Virus record (IMG/VR): IMGVR_UViG_3300006192_000008
Coordinates: 1 to 64,000 of that record
Strand: one strand, 5' to 3'
Source: a virus
DNA: 64,000 bases
The position numbers were made by a program, and so were the translations under genes. Under the pieces are notes generated by a model. That model saw only the letters and a list, made by a program, of their open reading frames with translations, was not told the origin of the DNA and did no database searches. This document shows positions 4,224 through 61,884 of the stretch, piece after piece (position 1 is the stretch's first letter; every line of letters begins with the position of its first letter).

Positions 4224-4261
4224 TAATCACCTTATCTCTTATTACTATCTAATATATCTAT

Positions 4262-4633
4262 TGTCTTAGATCAAGCTTAGGAAAGATAGATCAACCCTAT
4301 GGAAAGGCCATACAGGAACTACCTGCCTAAGACCTAACCGTAGTCTATCTCTCCCAAGCTGTCAACGATTCATTGTCTTGAGTCGCGCTTGAGGCTGCTG
4401 TGTAGCAGAACGCTTCGTATTAATAGAAGCAGATTAGTCATCATTCCACAAACAAAGATTTCTCCTTGCGTTGCGTCAACACCATCGCTATAATGACCTT
4501 CGATTCAGCTTGCTCTAGATGGTTTACCTCTTCGACTGAGCTTTAAGCTAGGTGCGGTGAGTGATCCTTACGGAGACATATCTTTCCTAGCCGAGCTGAA
4601 TCAAGTGCCATCTCTGTTAAATGACTCAACGGC
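4262..4633 (-). ncRNA. Candidate structured RNA or long 5' leader
   Basis: No ORF of 60 aa or more; nested helices with G-U pairs valid only on the minus strand; promoter directly upstream. Confidence 0.6.
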
Positions 4634-4637
4634 AACC

Positions 4638-4665
4638 ATTCTACACGAGATTTTCAATAATGCAA
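4638..4665 (-). promoter_or_regulatory. sigma70-like leftward promoter
   Basis: TTGCAT-N16-TAGAAT. Confidence 0.65.
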
Positions 4666-4698
4666 TAGGCTTGTGAAAATAAATTTATAGAAATTCAC

Positions 4699-4726
4699 TT
4701 GACTCTCACCTACAAGGGTGTAGAAT
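4699..4726 (+). promoter_or_regulatory. sigma70-like rightward promoter
   Basis: TTGACT-N16-TAGAAT ahead of the rightward gene block. Confidence 0.75.
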
Positions 4727-4761
4727 CACTCCCATCAACACAAACAACGTAGGAGATTGAG

Positions 4762-6367
4762 ATGATTGAAGTTACAGATGACTATGTGAAATTGGGTGAC
4801 ATTGTGGTTCCTCATAATGAGTTTGTGTGGCGTTCCTGTACAAATCGCCATACGACGACCTATGGTAATTCTTGGGGTTGGATTGAGAATGCTCCCGGTA
4901 ATGTCTGCTGGAGCAATGATCCGAAGGAGAAGCTTGATAGTAAACAAGCCCAAGCTCTAGTAAGTGCTCACAACAAATGGCTAGAAGACATTCAGCCTAT
5001 CCAGCTTAAAATTATCAAAGCCAAGAAAGCTGTAAAAGACCTTACACAAACCTTCAAGGAAAAGGAGCAAGCCTACTTGAAGGCTAAGGAGATGCTTGAG
5101 AAAGCTAAAGATAGTCTTGCTGAGCTTTTGGAAAGAATGTAGCAGTTAGGCTACAATTTCGCCCAATAACACCTAAATTGTAGCCCAAGAGTGCAATAAA
5201 TGTTGCACAGGCATAACAAAGACATTAGAATGTTTCGCATACAGAACACAAAGGAGAGGAATGGTGGACACAAACTTTAAGGCAATACCACAGGTTGACA
5301 AGGAATACATGGTCTTTGAGCACATCAATGGTCAGTACGAGCAGTTGACCGTGGTGCTTCCTCTACGAAAGGCTCAGGACTATATGCAGAATGCTTGCAT
5401 TCGCCATGGAACAAAGTATATTCTTACAGAGGTTGTTCAGTATAAGTATGTGAAAGAGGATTGAGCTATCACCGCCCACAAACCCATAGCGATAATCAAT
5501 TAGACGTTGCAGGAATGTGTGGTAGGATACCAGCGTATGAAATAGAGTTGTTGGGGGATGAAGGTAAATTGAGGAGAAATGAGATGAACAAAGTTCAAGC
5601 AGCGGATTTAATCTTGGCTTTAGATAAATACGCCCGAGGCGTTTGTCGGTATGAGTATGGACTGCCCACTTATGATAATAACTATGGGGGCATGGAAGAT
5701 TATATGAGCAATATGATTCAGATTGTCTTGGCTGCTGTTAATAAGGAGAATCAAGAATGAAATTCACCAAAGATCAAGCTCTAGCAATCATGGGATTTAC
5801 AGGCTTCACCACTACAAATTTCAGTACATTCCATGAGGATGTTGAGAAGCGTATTGGTCATCCTGTATGGACACACCAGTTTGCAGATGAGGAGTTTTCT
5901 GATAAAGTGAAAGCTCTGTATAAAGATGATTTTCTTTCATTTTGTGAGGAGTATAAATGATGAACGACTACGAAACACGCGAACGCATCCTCTCAGAAGC
6001 TCTAGAGGAACTAAAGCAGAAAGTAGGCTCTGAGCTGAACAGCATTATGGGCAACCTGTATTCTGATTATCTCCCTCACGTTGTAGGTGACACAGATGCT
6101 AATATTAGCTATCGTGTAGAAGGGTGTATTAAGAATATTCTTCAGGGGAAGATTCACACTGACGAAGATTATCCCAATCTATGCTGGGTTGATGATAGTT
6201 ATGGTGGTCGCCATATAATCAGTTTATCACCACACAGTCTTGACTTGAAACCTCTTGCTGATATTATGGGTGAAACGATTCAGACTAACAGAATTAAACA
6301 GCTTGAGCAGGAAGTGGAGAGCTTGAAGACTCAGCTTAAGAATGCTTATGAATATCGGAGTTATTAA
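4762..6367 (+). CDS. Small hypothetical genes (4762-5142, 5261-5464, ~5584-5760, 5757-5960, 5957-6367)
   Basis: ORFs with AGGAG RBSs and coupled stops/starts. Confidence 0.75.
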
Positions 6368-46185: not shown

Positions 46186-47274
46186 CGTTTATGTTCATGT
46201 AAGGTCATTACTCTTACACCGCTTTAGGTTTTCTTGACCAACCGTGATGATTTCTTTTGCACCAATTTTCAATAATGTAATATTCCACATTACCGTAATA
46301 TTGTGCGGCAAATATCGGGCTATCAAATTCCAAACCTTCTGGAGATACGAATTTATTCTTACTTCTAGAAGAGGACTTGTGCAGGAACTCTTCATTTCTT
46401 TCTGCGTTTTGTATAATATTATCATTAAGCTGCTTTGAATTTGCAGCTTTTACTACAGCACCAAGCTTCTGCATTGTAAGCAGTTGTTGGTAATTTTCCT
46501 CTTGACCTGACCAAGCTTTCATTTGTTTAGCTTTCTCGGCCTTCCACTCATCTGTGTGATTTTGACCTCTCCATGCGTCATTAGCCATCTTACGAATTTC
46601 ATCCATGTAACCAGATTCGATACGTTGTTTAGCTAAGTCCCTCGCATGTTTTCGCTGAGCTTCATTATTGGCTAACGGGCGAATTCTATCCAGAAGACCT
46701 GACTCAACATTGGCCTTTCCACGAGCAATAACCTGCTCAACTTCCTGTCCAGCCATCATTAGCCATGCCATATAGTCAGAGGCTTTTTTAAAGGCTTTCC
46801 AAAGCAATCTATGGGCAAATATGTGTTGTCTGTATGTCAACCTAATAAGGTTTTCTTTTGAATCATCGCCTCCTGCATGGCGAGGAATGATGTGGTGCTT
46901 TTCTGTGTAGACACCAACCTCAAACTCTTGATTCTTGTATTTCTCAATAAACGCAAAATAAAGTTTTTCGTAATTCATAACTTCTCCATAAGCAGCTCAT
47001 GCTTTCACGTGAGACCAGACTATATCTTAACGTACAGCATCACCTGTTTACGTTCTCCCCATTTCGGGTCATTTGACCCTACGGCATTCCTGCCTAGTCG
47101 TTGAACCTTCCCTTTCGGGCTTGGCTGCTGATTGTCCAATTTCTGTCGTTTTCAAACATTCACGCTTAAACCAGTTTACACAGGTTTTACGTTGTAGTCT
47201 ACAGAACTTTAGGAGTTTCCAGCAATTAAAGGAGTTTTCACTAAACCGTTTCTGGTTTAGGCGACTTGTTTCAA
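46186..47274 (-). mobile_element. Group I intron in the tail sheath gene, carrying an HNH ORF
   Basis: P1 CGAT/GTCG with U-G; core AATTGCTGGAAA, AATCAGCAG, TCAACGACTA, AAGATATAGTCT; terminal G; splicing restores the frame. Confidence 0.92.
46214..46978 (-). CDS. Intron-encoded HNH homing endonuclease
   Basis: EKHHIIPRHAGG...NLIRL...HIFAH. Confidence 0.9.
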   Translation of the reverse strand: MNYEKLYFAFIEKYKNQEFEVGVYTEKHHIIPRHAGGDDSKENLIRLTYRQHIFAHRLLWKAFKKASDYMAWLMMAGQEVEQVIARGKANVESGLLDRIRPLANNEAQRKHARDLAKQRIESGYMDEIRKMANDAWRGQNHTDEWKAEKAKQMKAWSGQEENYQQLLTMQKLGAVVKAANSKQLNDNIIQNAERNEEFLHKSSSRSKNKFVSPEGLEFDSPIFAAQYYGNVEYYIIENWCKRNHHGWSRKPKAV

Positions 47275-48285
47275 ATCGATTGGCGAACCACCAAAAGTGT
47301 CACCGTCTTGGAAGATATCAACACCAGCAACACGAGTGTACATGTTGCAATTCTTGCCGCGAAGATTTACACGAGCTGTATCATTGATAGTCGAACGAGT
47401 TACGCCAACAGCGCGCTTCTTATCCCAATCGTTAGAACCGGGGGTGTAAGGAAGTTGAGCACCGATCCAAGCAGCTTCTGGGTATTCAGTATCAGCAGTT
47501 GGGAGATAAACACCAAAGGTGCGGTCTGCTGTTTTAGCACTGAGCTTATAAGCAATGTCAGTGATACCTGTAGTGATTGCAACTGGGTCAGCAGTGGACG
47601 TACCCATGATTTTGCGTTGTGCTTGAATCACGTCACTGACGGCTTCTACAATCGCAGCGTTATGAGTATCAAGGATCAGTGCGTACCAAGTGCTGTTTTC
47701 ATCACTAACAGCTTCTAGAGCTTCGGGATAGGTTTCAGTTGGCGTAGTAACAACGACACTTAGGTTACTGGAAGCTACAATAGACCAATTAGACCCTGGA
47801 GTCACAACAGCCACGGAGAATGTACCGTCAAGGTTGTTTGTAAAGGTGACGCCGGTCACAGGGGCAAGATCATAAGCTGCTTTGAGGCCAGCTACGATTT
47901 CTGTTGCAAGTGCTGTGGCATCTGAAGTATAAGTAAACACAGTTGGTGTTACACTAGATGGTCCAGCAATAGTTACAGTGTATGCAGTACTGTTAGAAAC
48001 AGTTGCAACGGAACCAGCAACACTGTTAACCTGACGACGGCCTACTACAATGCTTGGTGGACGAGCACCAACAGTAGTTTGACCAAAGAGCTTTTGAGCA
48101 ATCTTATAAACTTCATCTGCACTGTCAAAGTCATCTTCAACAGCAGAGAAGTCAGTGTAAGAGCGAGTACGTTCAGAGAATTTAGTATGTGTTGCAAGTA
48201 CAAGGGGGATTTGGAAAGACGCAGTTTCTACAGGGGTAGATTCTCGCGTAATCGTGATTTGAACGATCTGGTCGAGTTCCGCCAT
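47275..48285 (-). CDS. Tail sheath protein, exon 1 (DUF3383-like)
   Basis: 337 codons ending GGSPID; spliced product 438 aa. Confidence 0.9.
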
Positions 48286-57096: not shown

Positions 57097-57382
57097 CAAA
57101 AATGTTCAAGATAGTTCGCTAGTCCTATCTCCGCACCATTATGTGCAGCTATATGTTTCCATATAGAGCAGACCATATCATCACACCTGTAAAGGTGAGC
57201 TTGCCGCTTCCACTCGCTTGAGTGTACTCTACTCTGTTCGGTGGCAGCCTCTATGACTGCTCTTAGCAACCGCATTTCGATGGTCGTTACACCTTCCTAT
57301 TTCTAGGCTTGGCTCGGGATTGCCCTCGTCTTTACGTTAGGATGTTCCCCGAGTTCAACAAGTTTAAAGATCGCCTAAGTCA
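57097..57382 (-). mobile_element. ORF-less group I intron (286 nt) in terL
   Basis: P1 GGATCGT/GCGATCT with U-G; P10 TTAG/CTAA; core GAACTCGGGGAA, AATCCCGAG, TAACGACCA, GATATGGTCT; terminal G. Confidence 0.92.
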
Positions 57383-57479
57383 ACGATCCTGCTGCGCCAC
57401 CCGCAACCAAGATTCTTGCGTCACTTTGCAAGTATTTTTCTTGGAAGGGTGACTGCGGAGCAACAATAATTTCACTCAT
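57383..57479 (-). CDS. terL: Terminase large subunit, exon 1
   Basis: MSEIIVAPQSPFQEKYL...GGAAGS; splicing gives Walker A GGAAGSSKS. Confidence 0.9.
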
Positions 57480-58299
57480 CTTTAGAGTTTCCCTTGTATT
57501 CCAGCCACTGCTGATCTTCTGCCGGAATCCAACCGTCTTTAAACTTATCCACGAGACTGTTGAAATAATGTCCCGGTAGATTTGTCAGATTGAGCTTATT
57601 GTAGGAAGTCAAGAACCTAGATTTAGTAGGTTTTCCACACAACACCCACGCATCATAGTATATATCTGCCGAGGTCCACTTGTGTTTGTGCGCAAGGGCG
57701 TCTGGACTATATTTCAACCATGGTAACATTGACCGGCTCGGGTTAGGCTGACACCCGCAAGATTTAACTTTACCATTAGTAAAGCTTGTTCCTCGTTTTA
57801 CTACGGTATTCCCACAAACACACAAAAGCTTCCAGAAAGAGACACTCTGCTTTTTACTACTATCAGCTTCCCAGTGAGAGAATTCAATGACTGTAAGTTG
57901 GTTATTAGACATACCAACAAGATTTTTAAACATGCTAGATTTATCTTTACTTAGGTCTGTATTGCTACGCATTTCAGTCATCTTAACTTTTGCACTTTTG
58001 GAGTACTCTTGTTTCAGTTTTGCGTATATTTTTGAAGACCTTACAGTGTCCCGAGTATGACTCATTAACCAAAACGCCCGCATTAGTGCGGTAGACTCCG
58101 GATGTGTTTTCCACAGTAACCAGTGTGCAATGAAGTGCTCTCTAGCCGTGAACAGGACAAGGTTATCTTTTGAATTACCACCACCTAGACATCTAGGTAT
58201 AATATGGTGAGATTCATGATAACCCTCAAGAGCTGACTTATTCAAGCCCCTTACTTTACACTTCTCAACCAACTGATCATATATCTTTTTGTAGTTCAT
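57472..58299 (-). CDS. Free-standing HNH homing endonuclease
   Basis: ESHHIIPRCLGG...NLVL...HFIAH; C-terminal CVCG/SCGC. Confidence 0.88.
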   Translation of the reverse strand: MNYKKIYDQLVEKCKVRGLNKSALEGYHESHHIIPRCLGGGNSKDNLVLFTAREHFIAHWLLWKTHPESTALMRAFWLMSHTRDTVRSSKIYAKLKQEYSKSAKVKMTEMRSNTDLSKDKSSMFKNLVGMSNNQLTVIEFSHWEADSSKKQSVSFWKLLCVCGNTVVKRGTSFTNGKVKSCGCQPNPSRSMLPWLKYSPDALAHKHKWTSADIYYDAWVLCGKPTKSRFLTSYNKLNLTNLPGHYFNSLVDKFKDGWIPAEDQQWLEYKGNSKDE

Positions 58300-58565
58300 A
58301 ATTACCTCTCATTAGGCTTAATAGGTGTAGACTAGCCAGATGAATGAGCATCTGGCGGGCTTGCAATCCCGTTCATCTACATTGATTTGCAACTTTAGAA
58401 TTTAGTAGCCCTGCATGTACTTCCGGGCATCAGAAGTAGGAGGAGAAACACGCGAGGTAAGCAACGTGCTTCAGACGACATGCTCGCCTAGGAGAAATCT
58501 TTAACGTGACTAAACCTAACGGTTGTACTTACGAAAGATAGTTTGTAGCAAGAATAGAAGTGCCA

Positions 58566-59402
58566 TTAACCAGCTCCGAGGTTTACAAGTTCAGCCCACC
58601 AACCAGAAAACACGCCAGTTGCTGTACCTGAACCAAAGTTTTCAAGACGCCAGTAGTAAGTTCCTACACCAACACCACGTTGATCAAACGACTTACTACC
58701 AACAGAAGATTGTTGTGCTGTTGCGTTAGTTGCCACAACCCTAACTCTATCAATAACTACACCTCCAGTAACTCCTGTACCACCTGTGAACAAGGTATTC
58801 TGGAACGTGTAGAATGGTGTCTCACGAAGAGTCATTGCATTCTTTGGAAGAATCGGTAGAGGAGTTGCATAAGTACCAGTACCTGTAGAACCTGCATAAG
58901 TGGATAGGCGAATACTGCCTGCATCTACTACACAACTTACATCATACAGAATCGTGTCAATTGCCACGTTAGCTTGGACGTAAACACTAGCGCCCGATGC
59001 TATCGAGAATTCATAGAATGTGCGAGCTTCTCGGCCACTATGGAAGGATGTCTGTCCTGTGTCTACTTTAACCCTACGATATAACTCATTAGGACTTGTA
59101 TAGATATCATGAGGAAGGTCTACACCGGTAAATGGTGTGATTGTCTCTGTAACCTTCTGAACCAAAACAGGGCCAGTACCACCACGAATCCAGATAGGAT
59201 CACTTGTTGCGTGTACCAGCACTGTCTGACCAGAGAGTAAGGGATACTGGTCACTGTCTGCTAAAGGAGGAAGAGATGCTTGAACTAGATATGCAGGAGA
59301 AGATGTATTATTGGTGACAATAAGACTTGTACCAGTATCAAAGTCAGAAAGCGTATAAAGATTGGTGTATGTGAAAGGACTTGGGATACTTACTACTTGC
59401 AT
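58566..59402 (-). CDS. Hypothetical beta-rich protein, possibly virion-associated
   Basis: 278-aa Thr/Gly/Ser-rich ORF. Confidence 0.7.
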   Translation of the reverse strand: MQVVSIPSPFTYTNLYTLSDFDTGTSLIVTNNTSSPAYLVQASLPPLADSDQYPLLSGQTVLVHATSDPIWIRGGTGPVLVQKVTETITPFTGVDLPHDIYTSPNELYRRVKVDTGQTSFHSGREARTFYEFSIASGASVYVQANVAIDTILYDVSCVVDAGSIRLSTYAGSTGTGTYATPLPILPKNAMTLRETPFYTFQNTLFTGGTGVTGGVVIDRVRVVATNATAQQSSVGSKSFDQRGVGVGTYYWRLENFGSGTATGVFSGWWAELVNLGAG

Positions 59403-59448
59403 TGCATTCCCCTGATGGAATTGTTATTTGTTGTAATGTGAGGGAATG

Positions 59449-59522
59449 TGGTGCTCTGTGAGTGAATCGAACACTCATCTGTTCCTTACAAGGGAACTGC
59501 TTGACCTTCCAGCAAACAGAGC
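59449..59522 (-). tRNA. tRNA-Thr(TGT)
   Basis: GCTCTGT/ACAGAGC, GTTCC-CTTGTAA-GGAAC, CCA. Confidence 0.88.
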
Positions 59523-59527
59523 GTATT

Positions 59528-59603
59528 TGGCTGGCGAGATACGATTCGAACGTATGACCTAAGAGTTAACAGCTCTTTGCAACTACCGCTGTGCTACTCG
59601 CCA
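59528..59603 (-). tRNA. tRNA-Asn(GTT)
   Basis: TGGCGAG/CTCGCCA, AAGAG-CTGTTAA-CTCTT, CCA. Confidence 0.92.
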
Positions 59604-60227
59604 AGAATAAGTATTGGGTCGCCACACTACCGTGCTCCCAATCAACAGGACAACGCTCCTGCTCTCTCCACCGTTTGCGTACCGAAGCACGACTTAATAC
59701 CCTACCGTCTAGGGAGTGCCTTTACAGGAGACTAAATATTACCCGTCGGTAATAAGTGCTGGAATACCACCAGCCTGTACTACATGGCTCAAAGGCCAAT
59801 TGATGCTTAGGTAGCGATCACACCTTCGTAGAACTACTGCACTTGTACCACTCTCGTAGTTGGCCCTTAAATACAGCATCCCGGTTGAACGGGCTGGTCT
59901 TTTGCTATTTTTACATAGCGACTCGTCAACGTACTACGCCGCGTATGAACGTAGTATCCGTAAAACAGCCTACCGCCAGATAGGCTTTCTTCAACTAGGC
60001 AAGTCGAAGTACCAGACCGAAGCCTGATTAGGATGACGCTGTGCTGGAGGAAGACGAAGTATAACTAAATACACAAGTCAACCCTAAGTAGTGTCCAGCC
60101 TTTCGATAAACCAACATCTCACCTTACGTGCAGTGAATCCATACACTATCTGCCGAGGTCGCTGTGTACTGTCATTGGTCTATCTAACGTCAGTTCTTTC
60201 TGTCCACTGTCCATAAACAGCGAACGC
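59604..60227 (-). ncRNA. Candidate large structured non-coding RNA
   Basis: ~620 nt without an ORF of 60 aa or more; many hairpins and long-range helices; G-U pairs favour the minus strand. Confidence 0.7.
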
Positions 60228-60605
60228 TTAATCATCACTCTTAGTGATTGAAACTACTTTCGTGCTAAATCGTGCTTGAGGCTGAGCGACAGGCTCTTTT
60301 GGATCGTCTTCAGGGTCTTCTAGCTGATCCTTCTCACGGCCATACACCTCATTGCGAAGGCTGATAGCGTTATCAACAATCAACTTTACAGCACTTAACT
60401 GTGTAGTGGATGTGACGTTCTTACTATCAAGCGGCTCATCAAGGATAGCTTCAGCTTTCTTCAAGGCTTTCGCAAGCAGAGGATCAATATAGTCCAATAC
60501 TTGCTTTATTTTAGTCTGACGCAGTGAACGAGATGACTTACTATTTAAAGGTCTACCACCTCGGGCCTTTCCAACACGTCCCAACTTATCTGGTTTCTCT
60601 GACAT
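60228..60605 (-). CDS. Probable terminase small subunit
   Basis: N-terminal GGRP, helical; first gene of the late block. Confidence 0.5.
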   Translation of the reverse strand: MSEKPDKLGRVGKARGGRPLNSKSSRSLRQTKIKQVLDYIDPLLAKALKKAEAILDEPLDSKNVTSTTQLSAVKLIVDNAISLRNEVYGREKDQLEDPEDDPKEPVAQPQARFSTKVVSITKSDD

Positions 60606-60628
60606 ATTCTTTCCTCAAGTTCAATATA

Positions 60629-60657
60629 ATCTTACAGTACTAATTGAACTTTGTCAA
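60629..60657 (-). promoter_or_regulatory. sigma70-like promoter
   Basis: TTGACA-N17-TAAGAT. Confidence 0.75.
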
Positions 60658-60885
60658 GCGTTATTTGATATAATGTGACAATTATTGTCACTCATCTGGA
60701 AGAATCGTCCAGAATTGCGTATTTGGCACTGTATCCACTTCATGAGCGTATTCAAATTTGAAGTCCTCCTCAGAATAGGGGAGGGTTGTTGTCAAATGGC
60801 AAACACATTCACTGACCAGTGGAGTACAGTGAGGACACTGTTTCTCTTTCATTGGTAGTTCCTGTTTTGTGCGGTTGAAGGTGTC

Positions 60886-60913
60886 AGTATACACCCAAAA
60901 GCGTTCTTGTCAA
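60886..60913 (-). promoter_or_regulatory. sigma70-like promoter
   Basis: TTGACA-N16-TATACT. Confidence 0.7.
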
Positions 60914-61344
60914 TAGATTTTGACTATTATTTCAACTTTTCATTAAAATAATTTATATAATCCAAATAACCCTTAGCTCGTTGGTAGTTCTGATTGATAT
61001 TCACACCAATCTGTCCTGACTTACCATAGGACAACCAAACCCATTCCATGATTGCACCTTCTTTAGGTTTTATAAACCTTCCACCTGATTTGTACTCTAC
61101 TTCACACTCAAGCAACCCTTCAAACCATTCACTACGTTTGTACTTCTTAAACATTATCTTTCTCCTCCAATCTTTTCTCAAGAAACAAAATATACTCCAT
61201 CAACTCCTCCACTTGCCTACTGACTCTCCAACTCTCTGAATTCCTATTCTCTCGATAGCCTTCAAGAAGGCCGTGTGGCTTTCCTCCTTTGAGGAAGTGC
61301 TCAAGCATATCATTACGGTCTTGTACTAATTTCAATACACTCTC

Positions 61345-61884
61345 CTAGAATGGGCCGTTATCACACCCAGAATCATCGTTATACGCATCTTTAGATGCAC
61401 CCCAGTAGGGTAGCCTAGGCTCTGGTGTGATCGTTGATTTAAGGGGTGTTTTAGTAGGGATTTGACCCTTCCCAGACCACTCCTTAACAACCTTATTCTG
61501 CTTCACATCACTTCTCCAAAAGTCCTCTGGAATCTCTGGAAGTATTTCAGTATTATCATTATCTACATACAAGATAATGTCAAGGACTTTCTCATATCTC
61601 CAATTCTTGTGTTGACCAGCTTGACCTTTATTGGCGACCATCAACCCACTGTCAATAAATCCACGTATGATCCTACCAACCTGTTTCACACTCACACCAC
61701 AAAGCTTGGCAATATCTTCTTGCTTGTCAAAATGCTTGTCAAAGAATGTGTTACGTTTCTTCATCACAACGTAGACGTTCTTGTCGTTAGCTGTCAGTTC
61801 TATCAGCTCACCCGTCTTAGGGCTAACGTAACCAGTCGCTCTCATCAGCACCTCTGGGTACTTGTAAAATAATGTCTGTTCCAA
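61345..61884 (-). CDS. HTH DNA-binding protein, replication-initiator-like
   Basis: LTANDKNVY...KQEDIAKLCGVSVKQVGRII...GL winged-HTH pattern; acidic-Phe C-terminus. Confidence 0.65.
   Translation of the reverse strand: MEQTLFYKYPEVLMRATGYVSPKTGELIELTANDKNVYVVMKKRNTFFDKHFDKQEDIAKLCGVSVKQVGRIIRGFIDSGLMVANKGQAGQHKNWRYEKVLDIILYVDNDNTEILPEIPEDFWRSDVKQNKVVKEWSGKGQIPTKTPLKSTITPEPRLPYWGASKDAYNDDSGCDNGPF

Follow-up and report, generated by a model that had tools for sequence, protein, structure and literature searches.

A modular structured RNA without an Rfam match at the head of a phage tRNA-gene slot

Bacteriophage T4 encodes two RNAs, band C and band D, together with a cluster of transfer RNA (tRNA) genes, with which they are co-processed. 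In the passages of Chevallereau et al. (2016, PMC4933390) that deal with such RNAs, band C and band D (species 1 and 2) are described as stable small RNAs of a virulent phage with unknown function. The same passages report two RNAs of ~100 nucleotides (nt) from Pseudomonas phage PAK_P3, sRNA1 and sRNA2, which RNA-seq places among the most abundant late transcripts and whose function is likewise unknown. GOLLD RNA, in the sections of Kretsch et al. (2025, PMC12286853) that describe it, combines a conserved with a variable region, lies near tRNA islands and may hold tRNAs in its linker. Here we describe a stretch of 624 nt (59604-60227, minus strand) within positions 1 to 64,000 of the IMG/VR virus record IMGVR_UViG_3300006192_000008. 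We call these 64 kilobases (kb) the window; the viral record that contains it has 87,455 base pairs (bp). An earlier interpretation made from the letters of the window alone (hereafter the sequence-only reading) had proposed that the stretch encodes a densely structured RNA of ~620 nt beside two tRNAs.

We identified RNA related to this stretch on 16 distinct phage contigs, including that of the cultured Pseudomonas phage vB_PsaM_M1 (hereafter M1). Loci were gathered in four ways: via the small open reading frame (ORF) upstream of the RNA, via a downstream ORF of 278 amino acids (aa), among GenBank phages, and by a scan for exact matches to the motif of the first hairpin (HP1). The RNA is structured on the minus strand and forms a modular island around a core of ~150 nt. 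It belongs to a family with no Rfam match, of which the window copy is the most elaborate member. That this is a real new RNA family we regard as highly probable. The conserved unit consists of two short blocks of ~65 and ~75 nt, represented by models R2 and R1. Their parts in the window, and a hairpin that adjoins them, are as follows:

59966-60031, minus strand: 5' block, with HP1, HP2 and HP3 (model R2, 73.3 bits)
60011-60028, minus strand: HP1, a 7-bp stem with a UUCG loop; consensus AUCARGC-UUCG-GYYUGGU
59989-60009, minus strand: HP2, with the loop UUGCCUA in the window; in the family, a (U)UGCCUA (or GCCUAG) loop on stems of very different sequence
59967-59986, minus strand: HP3, with the loop UGGC; in the family, covarying stems of 7-8 bp
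59678-59691, minus strand: capped hairpin CGUGC-UUCG-GUACG just 5' of the 3' block; contig L008 has CGUCC-UUGC-GGACG at the same place
59602-59677, minus strand: 3' block, with a GGAGAG strand, HP4, HP5 and an AU-rich tail (model R1, 66.6 bits)
59664-59669, minus strand: GGAGAG strand; family form of the strand (A)AGUGGAGAG
59645-59662, minus strand: HP4, a hairpin of the 3' block
59614-59641, minus strand: HP5; in the family, a covarying 7-10-bp stem that includes an inner GGC/GCC, its loop having GUGG at the end
59604-59613, minus strand: AU-rich tail, AAUUAUU-like in the family

The window thus carries what defines the family, the R2 and R1 blocks in this order downstream of a small ORF of a DUF5681-like family. 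Both blocks are present in 13 of the 16 contigs, whereas L019 and L024 have the 5' block alone and L017 the 3' block alone. Block order is constant among the phages with both, and the RNA occurs in one copy per genome at the head of a tRNA-gene slot. Model R2 matches 15 contigs, and R1 gives one match in each of the six complete phage records searched, three of these matches being weak. Minimal relatives (L015, L018, L020 and L022) have the blocks 15-45 nt apart and measure ~150-170 nt in all. HP1 is almost invariant over 20 bp, and a hairpin just 5' of the 3' block is also present in other members.

The carriers are ~85-93-kb phages of one small clade, found in fresh water, waste water and sea water. 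The closest named relative of the window phage is M1, a marine phage filed under Ounavirinae. A blastn search of 50,697 phage records returned M1 only, as did tblastn with the small ORF, and a scan of 185,579 prokaryote genomes for the HP1-HP2 pattern gave no matches. Phages Bitten and Pyxpy02, which are related through the 278-aa ORF, have tRNA arrays in the slot and no R1 match (best 8.8 bits). We rejected a further candidate, the 226-kb viral contig L021, as a probable chance match; it has an HP1-pattern match and 22 bits with R2, and no R1 match. Narrow literature searches found no published description of this RNA, and a search for 'vB_PsaM_M1' returned no papers.

The sequence-only reading had named covariation among homologues as a check, and strong compensatory changes are found in both conserved blocks. 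In the 3' block (model-fitted alignment, 10 sequences), 88.5% of cells are paired versus 61.7% in shuffles, and none of 500 shuffles reaches this value. Changes on both sides occur in 13 of its 15 pairs, and slid controls are 35-61% paired. HP1 and HP3 together (plain MAFFT alignment, 12 sequences) are 96.7% paired versus 83.1% in shuffles, with none of 500 as high; the same alignment has 28 cells with a change on both sides versus 9.3, and slid controls of 27-47%. For all three 5' hairpins (model-fitted alignment, 15 sequences) the corresponding values are 88.4% and 74.3%. HP2 is poorly registered in the R2-fitted alignment (66% paired), and loop-anchored counts are the better measure for this hairpin. 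These counts find 105 of 105 cells paired in HP1, 64 of 74 in HP2 and 83 of 84 in HP3. At the variable positions of HP2 and HP3, between four and eight kinds of pair occur. The stems of HP2 are completely different between members, yet mostly pair.

Conserved U-G and G-U wobbles fall in stems on the minus strand only (U-G at position 6 of HP1 in 14 of 15 sequences, U-G at position 2 of HP3 in 10 of 12), which fixes the strand as the one originally proposed. Coding is excluded by insertions and deletions of 1, 2 and 20 nt between close relatives, and the ORF list of the window has no ORF of at least 60 aa in the RNA stretch. As the sequence-only reading had noted, this is the longest part of the window without such an ORF (59403-60227, 825 nt including the two tRNAs). 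The second-longest (4224-4734, 511 nt) has no Rfam match at gathering scores.

Read directly from the sequence, the proposed local hairpins are all in place: TATTACC/GGTAATA (59737-59754), GCTGG/CCAGC (59758-59774), CCCTA/TAGGG (59700-59714), AGCCTATC/GGTAGGCT (59967-59986), TACTACG/CGTAGTA (59932-59956), two UUCG-capped hairpins and a GAGA-capped one. Two of the four long-range helices proposed with them are contradicted by comparison. CGACTTG/CGAGTCG is incompatible with the covarying HP2, and AAGGGCCAA/TTGGCCTTT is unconserved, since L003 has its first arm without the second; a local alternative to the latter, AAGGU/GCCUU, pairs with one compensatory change. The other two fare better. L004 retains the helix GATAGACCAAT/GTTGGTTTATC and swaps its 59-nt interior for a UUCG loop, and GCTGGA/TCCAGC is invariant in 4 of 4 relatives, its apical hairpin covarying.

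Searches with Rfam 15 gave no match in the region at gathering scores (whole window), at E ≤ 1 (58500-61500, where the two tRNAs alone are returned) or at E ≤ 10 (the 624 nt, all 4227 families). The same search detects both group I introns of the window (95.3 and 66.4 bits) and all four of its tRNAs. In the relatives L001 and L003-L005, no match to GOLLD, ROOL or another family was found in the region at E ≤ 1. Covariance models of RNase P RNA, transfer-messenger RNA (tmRNA), 6S RNA, Y RNA and known self-cleaving ribozymes gave no match in the 624 nt at E ≤ 10, and ARAGORN in tmRNA mode found none in the region. The suggestion that the RNA belongs to GOLLD or ROOL was not borne out, as cmscan of the 624 nt gave neither even at E ≤ 10.

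Two other kinds of candidate were rejected. ARAGORN, by default and with -ps, calls tRNA-Asn and tRNA-Thr only, with three to four odd calls at a 70-80% threshold, and RF00005 has no match in the region. For a group I intron, RF00028 has no match at E ≤ 10, the upstream ORF ends at a conserved stop, and an intact tRNA or nothing follows.

The 3' block contains a recurrent arrangement, GGAG with an AUG, UUG or CUG placed 9-12 nt further on, where the HP4 loop reaches its 3' end (window 59645-59669; 12 of the 12 sequences listed). A mini-ORF at this place was rejected as coding, with frames of 2-23 codons and no peptide in common. The arrangement could be a ribosome-docking feature or a coincidence. 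Tertiary contacts were sought by eye between the HP2 loop and the HP3 and HP5 loops, and for partners of GGAGAG; the loops were too invariant or the fits too inconsistent for any contact to be put forward.

The window copy is the largest known because three further structured modules stand before and between the blocks:

60033-60195, minus strand: module A, an accessory 5' domain, also in M1 (84%), L008 and L010, and shortened in L004
59825-59965, minus strand: module B, an accessory domain with TACTACG, GCUAU, CCCG and GAGA-capped hairpins
59698-59824, minus strand: module C, an accessory domain with GCUGG/CCAGC, UAUUACC/GGUAAUA and CCCUA/UAGGG hairpins

These lineage-specific modules account for ~450 nt of the stretch and are distributed patchily among the relatives. 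One helix of module A is long and pairs 60175-60185 with 60105-60115. A second, GCUGGA/UCCAGC, joins 60094-60099 to 60043-60048 and is topped by an apical hairpin with both-side changes in four pairs. The module is missing from L005, L003, L009 and every minimal form, and a different 5' domain is found in L005, L011, L003 and possibly L009. Module B is common to L003 (93%), L008 and L009 (80%), and the L009 copy is without exactly the GCUAU...AUAGC hairpin. Its insertions and deletions of 2 and 20 nt rule out coding; 1 of its 42 predicted pairs has a both-side change. Module C is common to L008 and L009, and a 26-nt piece of it recurs in L026. The L008 copy replaces GCUGG/CCAGC by GCUAG/CUAGC, a compensatory change. 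Modules B and C are nearly identical among their carriers and hence show little covariation. A small hairpin with a GAAAGA loop lies between the blocks in 5 of the 16 members (L015, L022, L020, L009 and M1), and its stems covary (ACCG/CGGU, CUAG/CUAG, GUCAG/CUGAC).

Comparison by blastn shows a mosaic. Positions 33-233 of the RNA match M1 (84%), 118-241 match L004, 226-403 match L003 (93%) and 402-530 match L009 (97%), while nearly the full length matches L008 (91%). Modules A, B and C are inherited separately. Module C is 97% identical to L009 4396-4524, though the upstream small ORFs are only 63% identical in protein; this identity reflects either recent exchange or very strong constraint. 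In L003, an ORF of 197 codons (1929-2522) lies between module B and the 3' block and matches the C-terminal part of the HNH-endonuclease family phrog_953 (E 1e-43). This ORF may explain, by co-conversion, the near-identical tracts of otherwise diverged phages. The nearly identical modules of diverged phages and the endonuclease-family gene in the region point to transfer by recombination or homing in addition to selection.

On the minus strand of the window, a promoter-like site is followed by a 125-aa ORF, the RNA stretch, tRNA-Asn, tRNA-Thr, the 278-aa ORF, an HNH gene and terL. The features nearest the RNA are:

60629-60657, minus strand: sigma-70-like promoter (TTGACA, 17 nt, TAAGAT) ahead of the 125-aa ORF; a match to consensus only, at 10 of 12 positions
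60228-60605, minus strand: 125-aa small ORF (the 'terS' of the sequence-only reading), basic at the N-terminus, acidic in its tail and predicted to be helical in between
60202-60225, minus strand: hairpin directly 3' of the small-ORF stop codon in the minimum-free-energy fold; the same in L004, a variant in L008, L010 and M1
59528-59603, minus strand: tRNA-Asn(GUU), abutting the RNA tail (Rfam 57.9 bits)
59449-59522, minus strand: tRNA-Thr(UGU) (Rfam 56.2 bits)

The transcript that carries the RNA probably starts at the promoter-like site (60657-60629), judging by its match to consensus. A site scan lists no promoter-like or terminator-like site on the minus strand inside the RNA interval, and no terminator-like site on that strand across window 58300-61300. 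The RNA region directly adjoins tRNA-Asn, as had been described, with the region ending at 59604 and the tRNA starting at 59603.

Further downstream, a hairpin (AUUCC-UAGG-GGAAU in most relatives) holds the ribosome-binding site of the 278-aa ORF (window 59403-59425, minus strand) and is also found in L001, L003, L008, L009 and L017. A homologue of the 278-aa ORF was not found by tblastn in the fetched part of the L008 or L003 locus, though both retain that leader. The two group I introns lie at 46996-47283 and 57149-57415 on the minus strand; terL is split by the second of them, which sits beside an HNH homing-endonuclease gene (57472-58299).

All 14 loci examined have a homologous small ORF, 116-139 aa long, upstream of the RNA, and the gap from this ORF to HP1 measures 3-234 nt. 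The small ORFs of L017 and L024 just reach Pfam DUF5681 (27.9 bits against a cut-off of 27.5) and match PAK_P3 gp161 (E 9e-13) and ORFs of phages Bitten and Pyxpy02. The small ORF of the window has no match in Pfam, PHROG or NCBIfam, and an Atlas search with it returned unnamed viral clusters only. With no family match for the window ORF and a marginal DUF5681 match in relatives, the 'terS' label stays a guess. The small-ORF family extends to Nankokuvirus and other Pseudomonas phages, where it heads the tRNA array without this RNA. Three such homologues are:

PAK_P3 (L037), 4705-5061
Bitten (L029), 4982-5359
Pyxpy02 (L028), 1255-1572

Release of the RNA by tRNA 5' processing, another proposal of the sequence-only reading, could operate only where a tRNA comes next. 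Of the 14 contigs with a 3' block, 7 have a tRNA directly against it (Asn twice, Pro, Gly, Trp, Thr and one Rfam-only tRNA). Six contigs have no tRNA there (L008, L015, L018, L020, L022 and L026). The RNA thus appears to be independent of its downstream genes, the flanking tRNA being variable or missing across the contigs compared. In L017 (1793-1960), a TTGACA-17-TACAAT promoter follows the RNA tail. In L024 (930-987 and downstream), an intrinsic terminator comes after the 5' block, ahead of a TTGACA-16-TATACT promoter driving five tRNAs.

We also identified contigs of relatives from two RNA libraries, made in two studies, that map to the region. One of 425 nt lies on 59797-60199 (X21) and one of 180 nt on 59666-59829 (X23). 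Neither library gives cover over the flanking ORFs, an absence from which we draw no conclusion. In the complementary DNA (cDNA) libraries X18 and X20, summed depth is in the hundreds over 59804-60205 versus <30 over the small ORF; these depths sum over relatives and cannot rank the parts. Separately, the intergenic interval 60876-61000 has an unexplained summed contig depth of 700-2000 in X20, and contains promoter-like sites on both strands (60913-60886, minus; 60920-60949, plus). It may be another small RNA, or a conserved piece common to many relatives.

Taken as a whole, the reading that we favour, and in which our confidence is evenly balanced, is that of a stable, partner-bound RNA acting in trans and derived from a co-transcribed, processed island. 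The mechanism is much less certain than the existence of the new family. The island would be transcribed from the host-type promoter at 60657-60629 as a 3' extension of the small-ORF messenger RNA (mRNA) and cut out like a tRNA precursor. In the window, the 3' end would be made by RNase P as it cuts in front of tRNA-Asn; in phages with no tRNA at this place, it would be made by a cut in the AU-rich tail. The product would be a single stable RNA, or several, building up in the course of infection. The invariant loops and the GGAGAG strand are its putative working surfaces, and the accessory modules may be dispensable stabilising or add-on domains. Acting in trans, the RNA would most likely be bound by a partner from the phage or the host, or provide a scaffold for it; the first candidate is the product of the ever-present upstream ORF.

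Several observations weigh against this reading. First, the blocks occur singly in L019, L024 and L017, so that there may be two separate RNAs, not one. Second, the 5' block starts 3-4 nt past the small-ORF stop in L022 and L026, a spacing that fits a cis role on the ORF mRNA at least as well as a trans role. Third, the predicted folds of modules B and C derive from a single sequence with two or three compensatory changes, and the 97% module identity could come from recent exchange and not from selection; an HNH-family ORF lies inside the RNA region of L003. Fourth, the RNA-library contigs are those of relatives and not of this phage, are uninformative on strand, ends and level, and come from libraries of a kind in which DNA may be present. 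Fifth, a profile of the small-ORF family (alignment A14) has no relative in the PDB by sequence. Finally, the 624-nt stretch does not fold significantly better than shuffled sequence, an outcome that the sequence-only reading had listed as one that would refute it. Against 150 dinucleotide shuffles, z is -1.31 and 17 of the 150 fold equally well; a smaller set (n=20) had given z -2.0, and the plus strand gives z -0.3. The z-scores are therefore not used as support, and the case rests on comparison with relatives.

The RNA could instead act in cis, which we consider possible though on balance unlikely. It would then be a 3' untranslated region or leader element on a transcript that starts with the small ORF and continues through the tRNAs to late structural genes, with a role in put-like antitermination, as an N/nut-like site to which the basic upstream protein binds, or in the control of mRNA decay or processing. 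The same ORF always lies upstream, as near as 3-4 nt after its stop, and its N-terminus is rich in arginine and lysine. A host-type promoter stands upstream, at the head of a long same-strand gene block; HP1 and HP2 are only 1-3 nt apart, and in L024 an intrinsic terminator follows directly. An antitermination site would, however, find no terminator-like site on the minus strand in 58300-61300, the downstream tRNAs of L017 and L024 have their own promoter, and L008 and L003 have a different downstream gene or none. A small cis signal would also not be expected to carry accessory modules of up to 450 nt, and Rfam gives no match that would indicate homology to put or nut.

The continuous string of domains, which has no internal promoter or terminator, could also be a single large and ornate RNA of ~600 nt. 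Such an RNA would fold into one particle and form a new class like the RNA-only cages of GOLLD and ROOL, with modules A-C as integral peripheral domains. The 425-nt RNA-library contig covers module A, the 5' block and module B. In addition, the swap of a helix interior for a tetraloop (L004) and the clean deletion of a hairpin (L009) are changes as in large folded RNAs, and GOLLD, as described in sections of PMC12286853, has a conserved and a variable part near tRNA islands. We nevertheless find this doubtful. Minimal members lack all three modules, the modules differ in phyletic pattern, the long-range helices that would tie the domains together are not conserved, L003 tolerates the separation of module B from the 3' block by a 197-codon ORF, and GOLLD and ROOL give no match. 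The new large RNA class inferred by the sequence-only reading holds as a structured minus-strand RNA without an Rfam family in the tRNA slot of a phage group, and fails in its size, as the conserved unit is not 620 nt. Its observation is partly confirmed and on the whole correct, and its interpretation is right in part.

A more daring reading, to which we give a low probability, makes the five-hairpin core the RNA half of a phage ribonucleoprotein with the small basic ORF. The RNA might then be associated with packaging in a terminase-type phage (a functional counterpart of phi29 pRNA), or the protein and RNA might be a switch that commits RNA polymerase to the late operon, with the window form as an 'ornate' elaboration. 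If this were true, the 0.6-kb form would represent a large phage RNA of a new class, with the cultured vB_PsaM_M1 as a tractable member.

A site acting at the DNA level is very improbable. It could be an origin, or a packaging (pac) site that the small-terminase-like protein next to it binds; pac sites are often in or beside terS genes, and the near-invariance of HP1 over 20 bp would suit such a site. However, the stems keep pairing via compensatory changes, the U-G wobbles would be A-C mismatches on the other strand, and the RNA is internal in records with terminal repeats. HP1 possibly has a DNA role beside its RNA role. Least probable of all is that the stretch is debris of decayed tRNA genes or of a group I intron and homing endonuclease, as might be suggested by the tRNA arrays that relatives have in the slot, the two introns elsewhere in this phage, the HNH-family ORF in L003 and the odd low-threshold pseudo-tRNAs. 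Against debris, the Rfam tRNA and group I models give no match here at E ≤ 10, and the common stop of the upstream ORF in all relatives leaves no exons that could be joined. The family also has one copy per genome, with hairpins that covary under selection, and a group I core would not fit into the 150-nt minimal forms.

The roles of phage structured RNAs (GOLLD, ROOL, T4 band C and D, the PAK_P3 sRNAs) are almost wholly unknown, and this family adds a clean case, with strong covariation, one copy per genome and a fixed place beside one protein family where the tRNA slot and late genes begin. Its members form a natural 'deletion series' from ~150 to ~620 nt that reveals the essential parts. 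Through the cultured member vB_PsaM_M1, expression, processing, partners and knock-outs become directly testable. The patchwork of near-identical modules, with a homing-endonuclease-family gene in one copy, offers a view of RNA-gene shuffling among phages.

The put RNA of phage HK022 consists of two hairpins that make RNA polymerase terminator-resistant, and in the N/nut system of lambda a protein binds an RNA site. The present locus resembles both in having paired hairpins shortly behind a promoter and a small gene, and in that the adjacent protein is small and basic. It differs in its five hairpins and large add-on modules, and in that the window has no predicted downstream terminator. T4 is of another phage group, and its band C and D RNAs are likened here by description, not by sequence. 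GOLLD and ROOL, in the sections of Kretsch et al. (2025) devoted to them, are phage-encoded structured RNAs of unknown function, often near tRNA islands. This RNA shares with GOLLD the nearness to tRNAs and a conserved plus variable part, which is a resemblance of context only. By the figures in the same sections, its conserved unit of ~150 nt in two blocks contrasts with 580-800 nt, and the hosts are different; neither covariance model matches, and pseudoknots and multimer contacts are not among the features found here.

PAK_P3, an ~88-kb Pseudomonas myovirus (record KC862299), has its sRNAs in the same genomic slot. There, gp161, the homologue of the small ORF, is followed by sRNA1, by tRNAs with sRNA2 between them, by a 272-aa gene and by terL. 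In contrast to the window, a further ORF lies between gp161 and sRNA1. The sRNAs show no homology to this RNA by R1 or R2 (KC862299 80000-88097, filters off; R1 best 7.9 bits, R2 best 7.7 bits), and no homology was detected between the 272-aa gene and the 278-aa ORF of the window. Judged by gene order, sRNA1 and sRNA2 of PAK_P3 are the closest positional analogues of this RNA.

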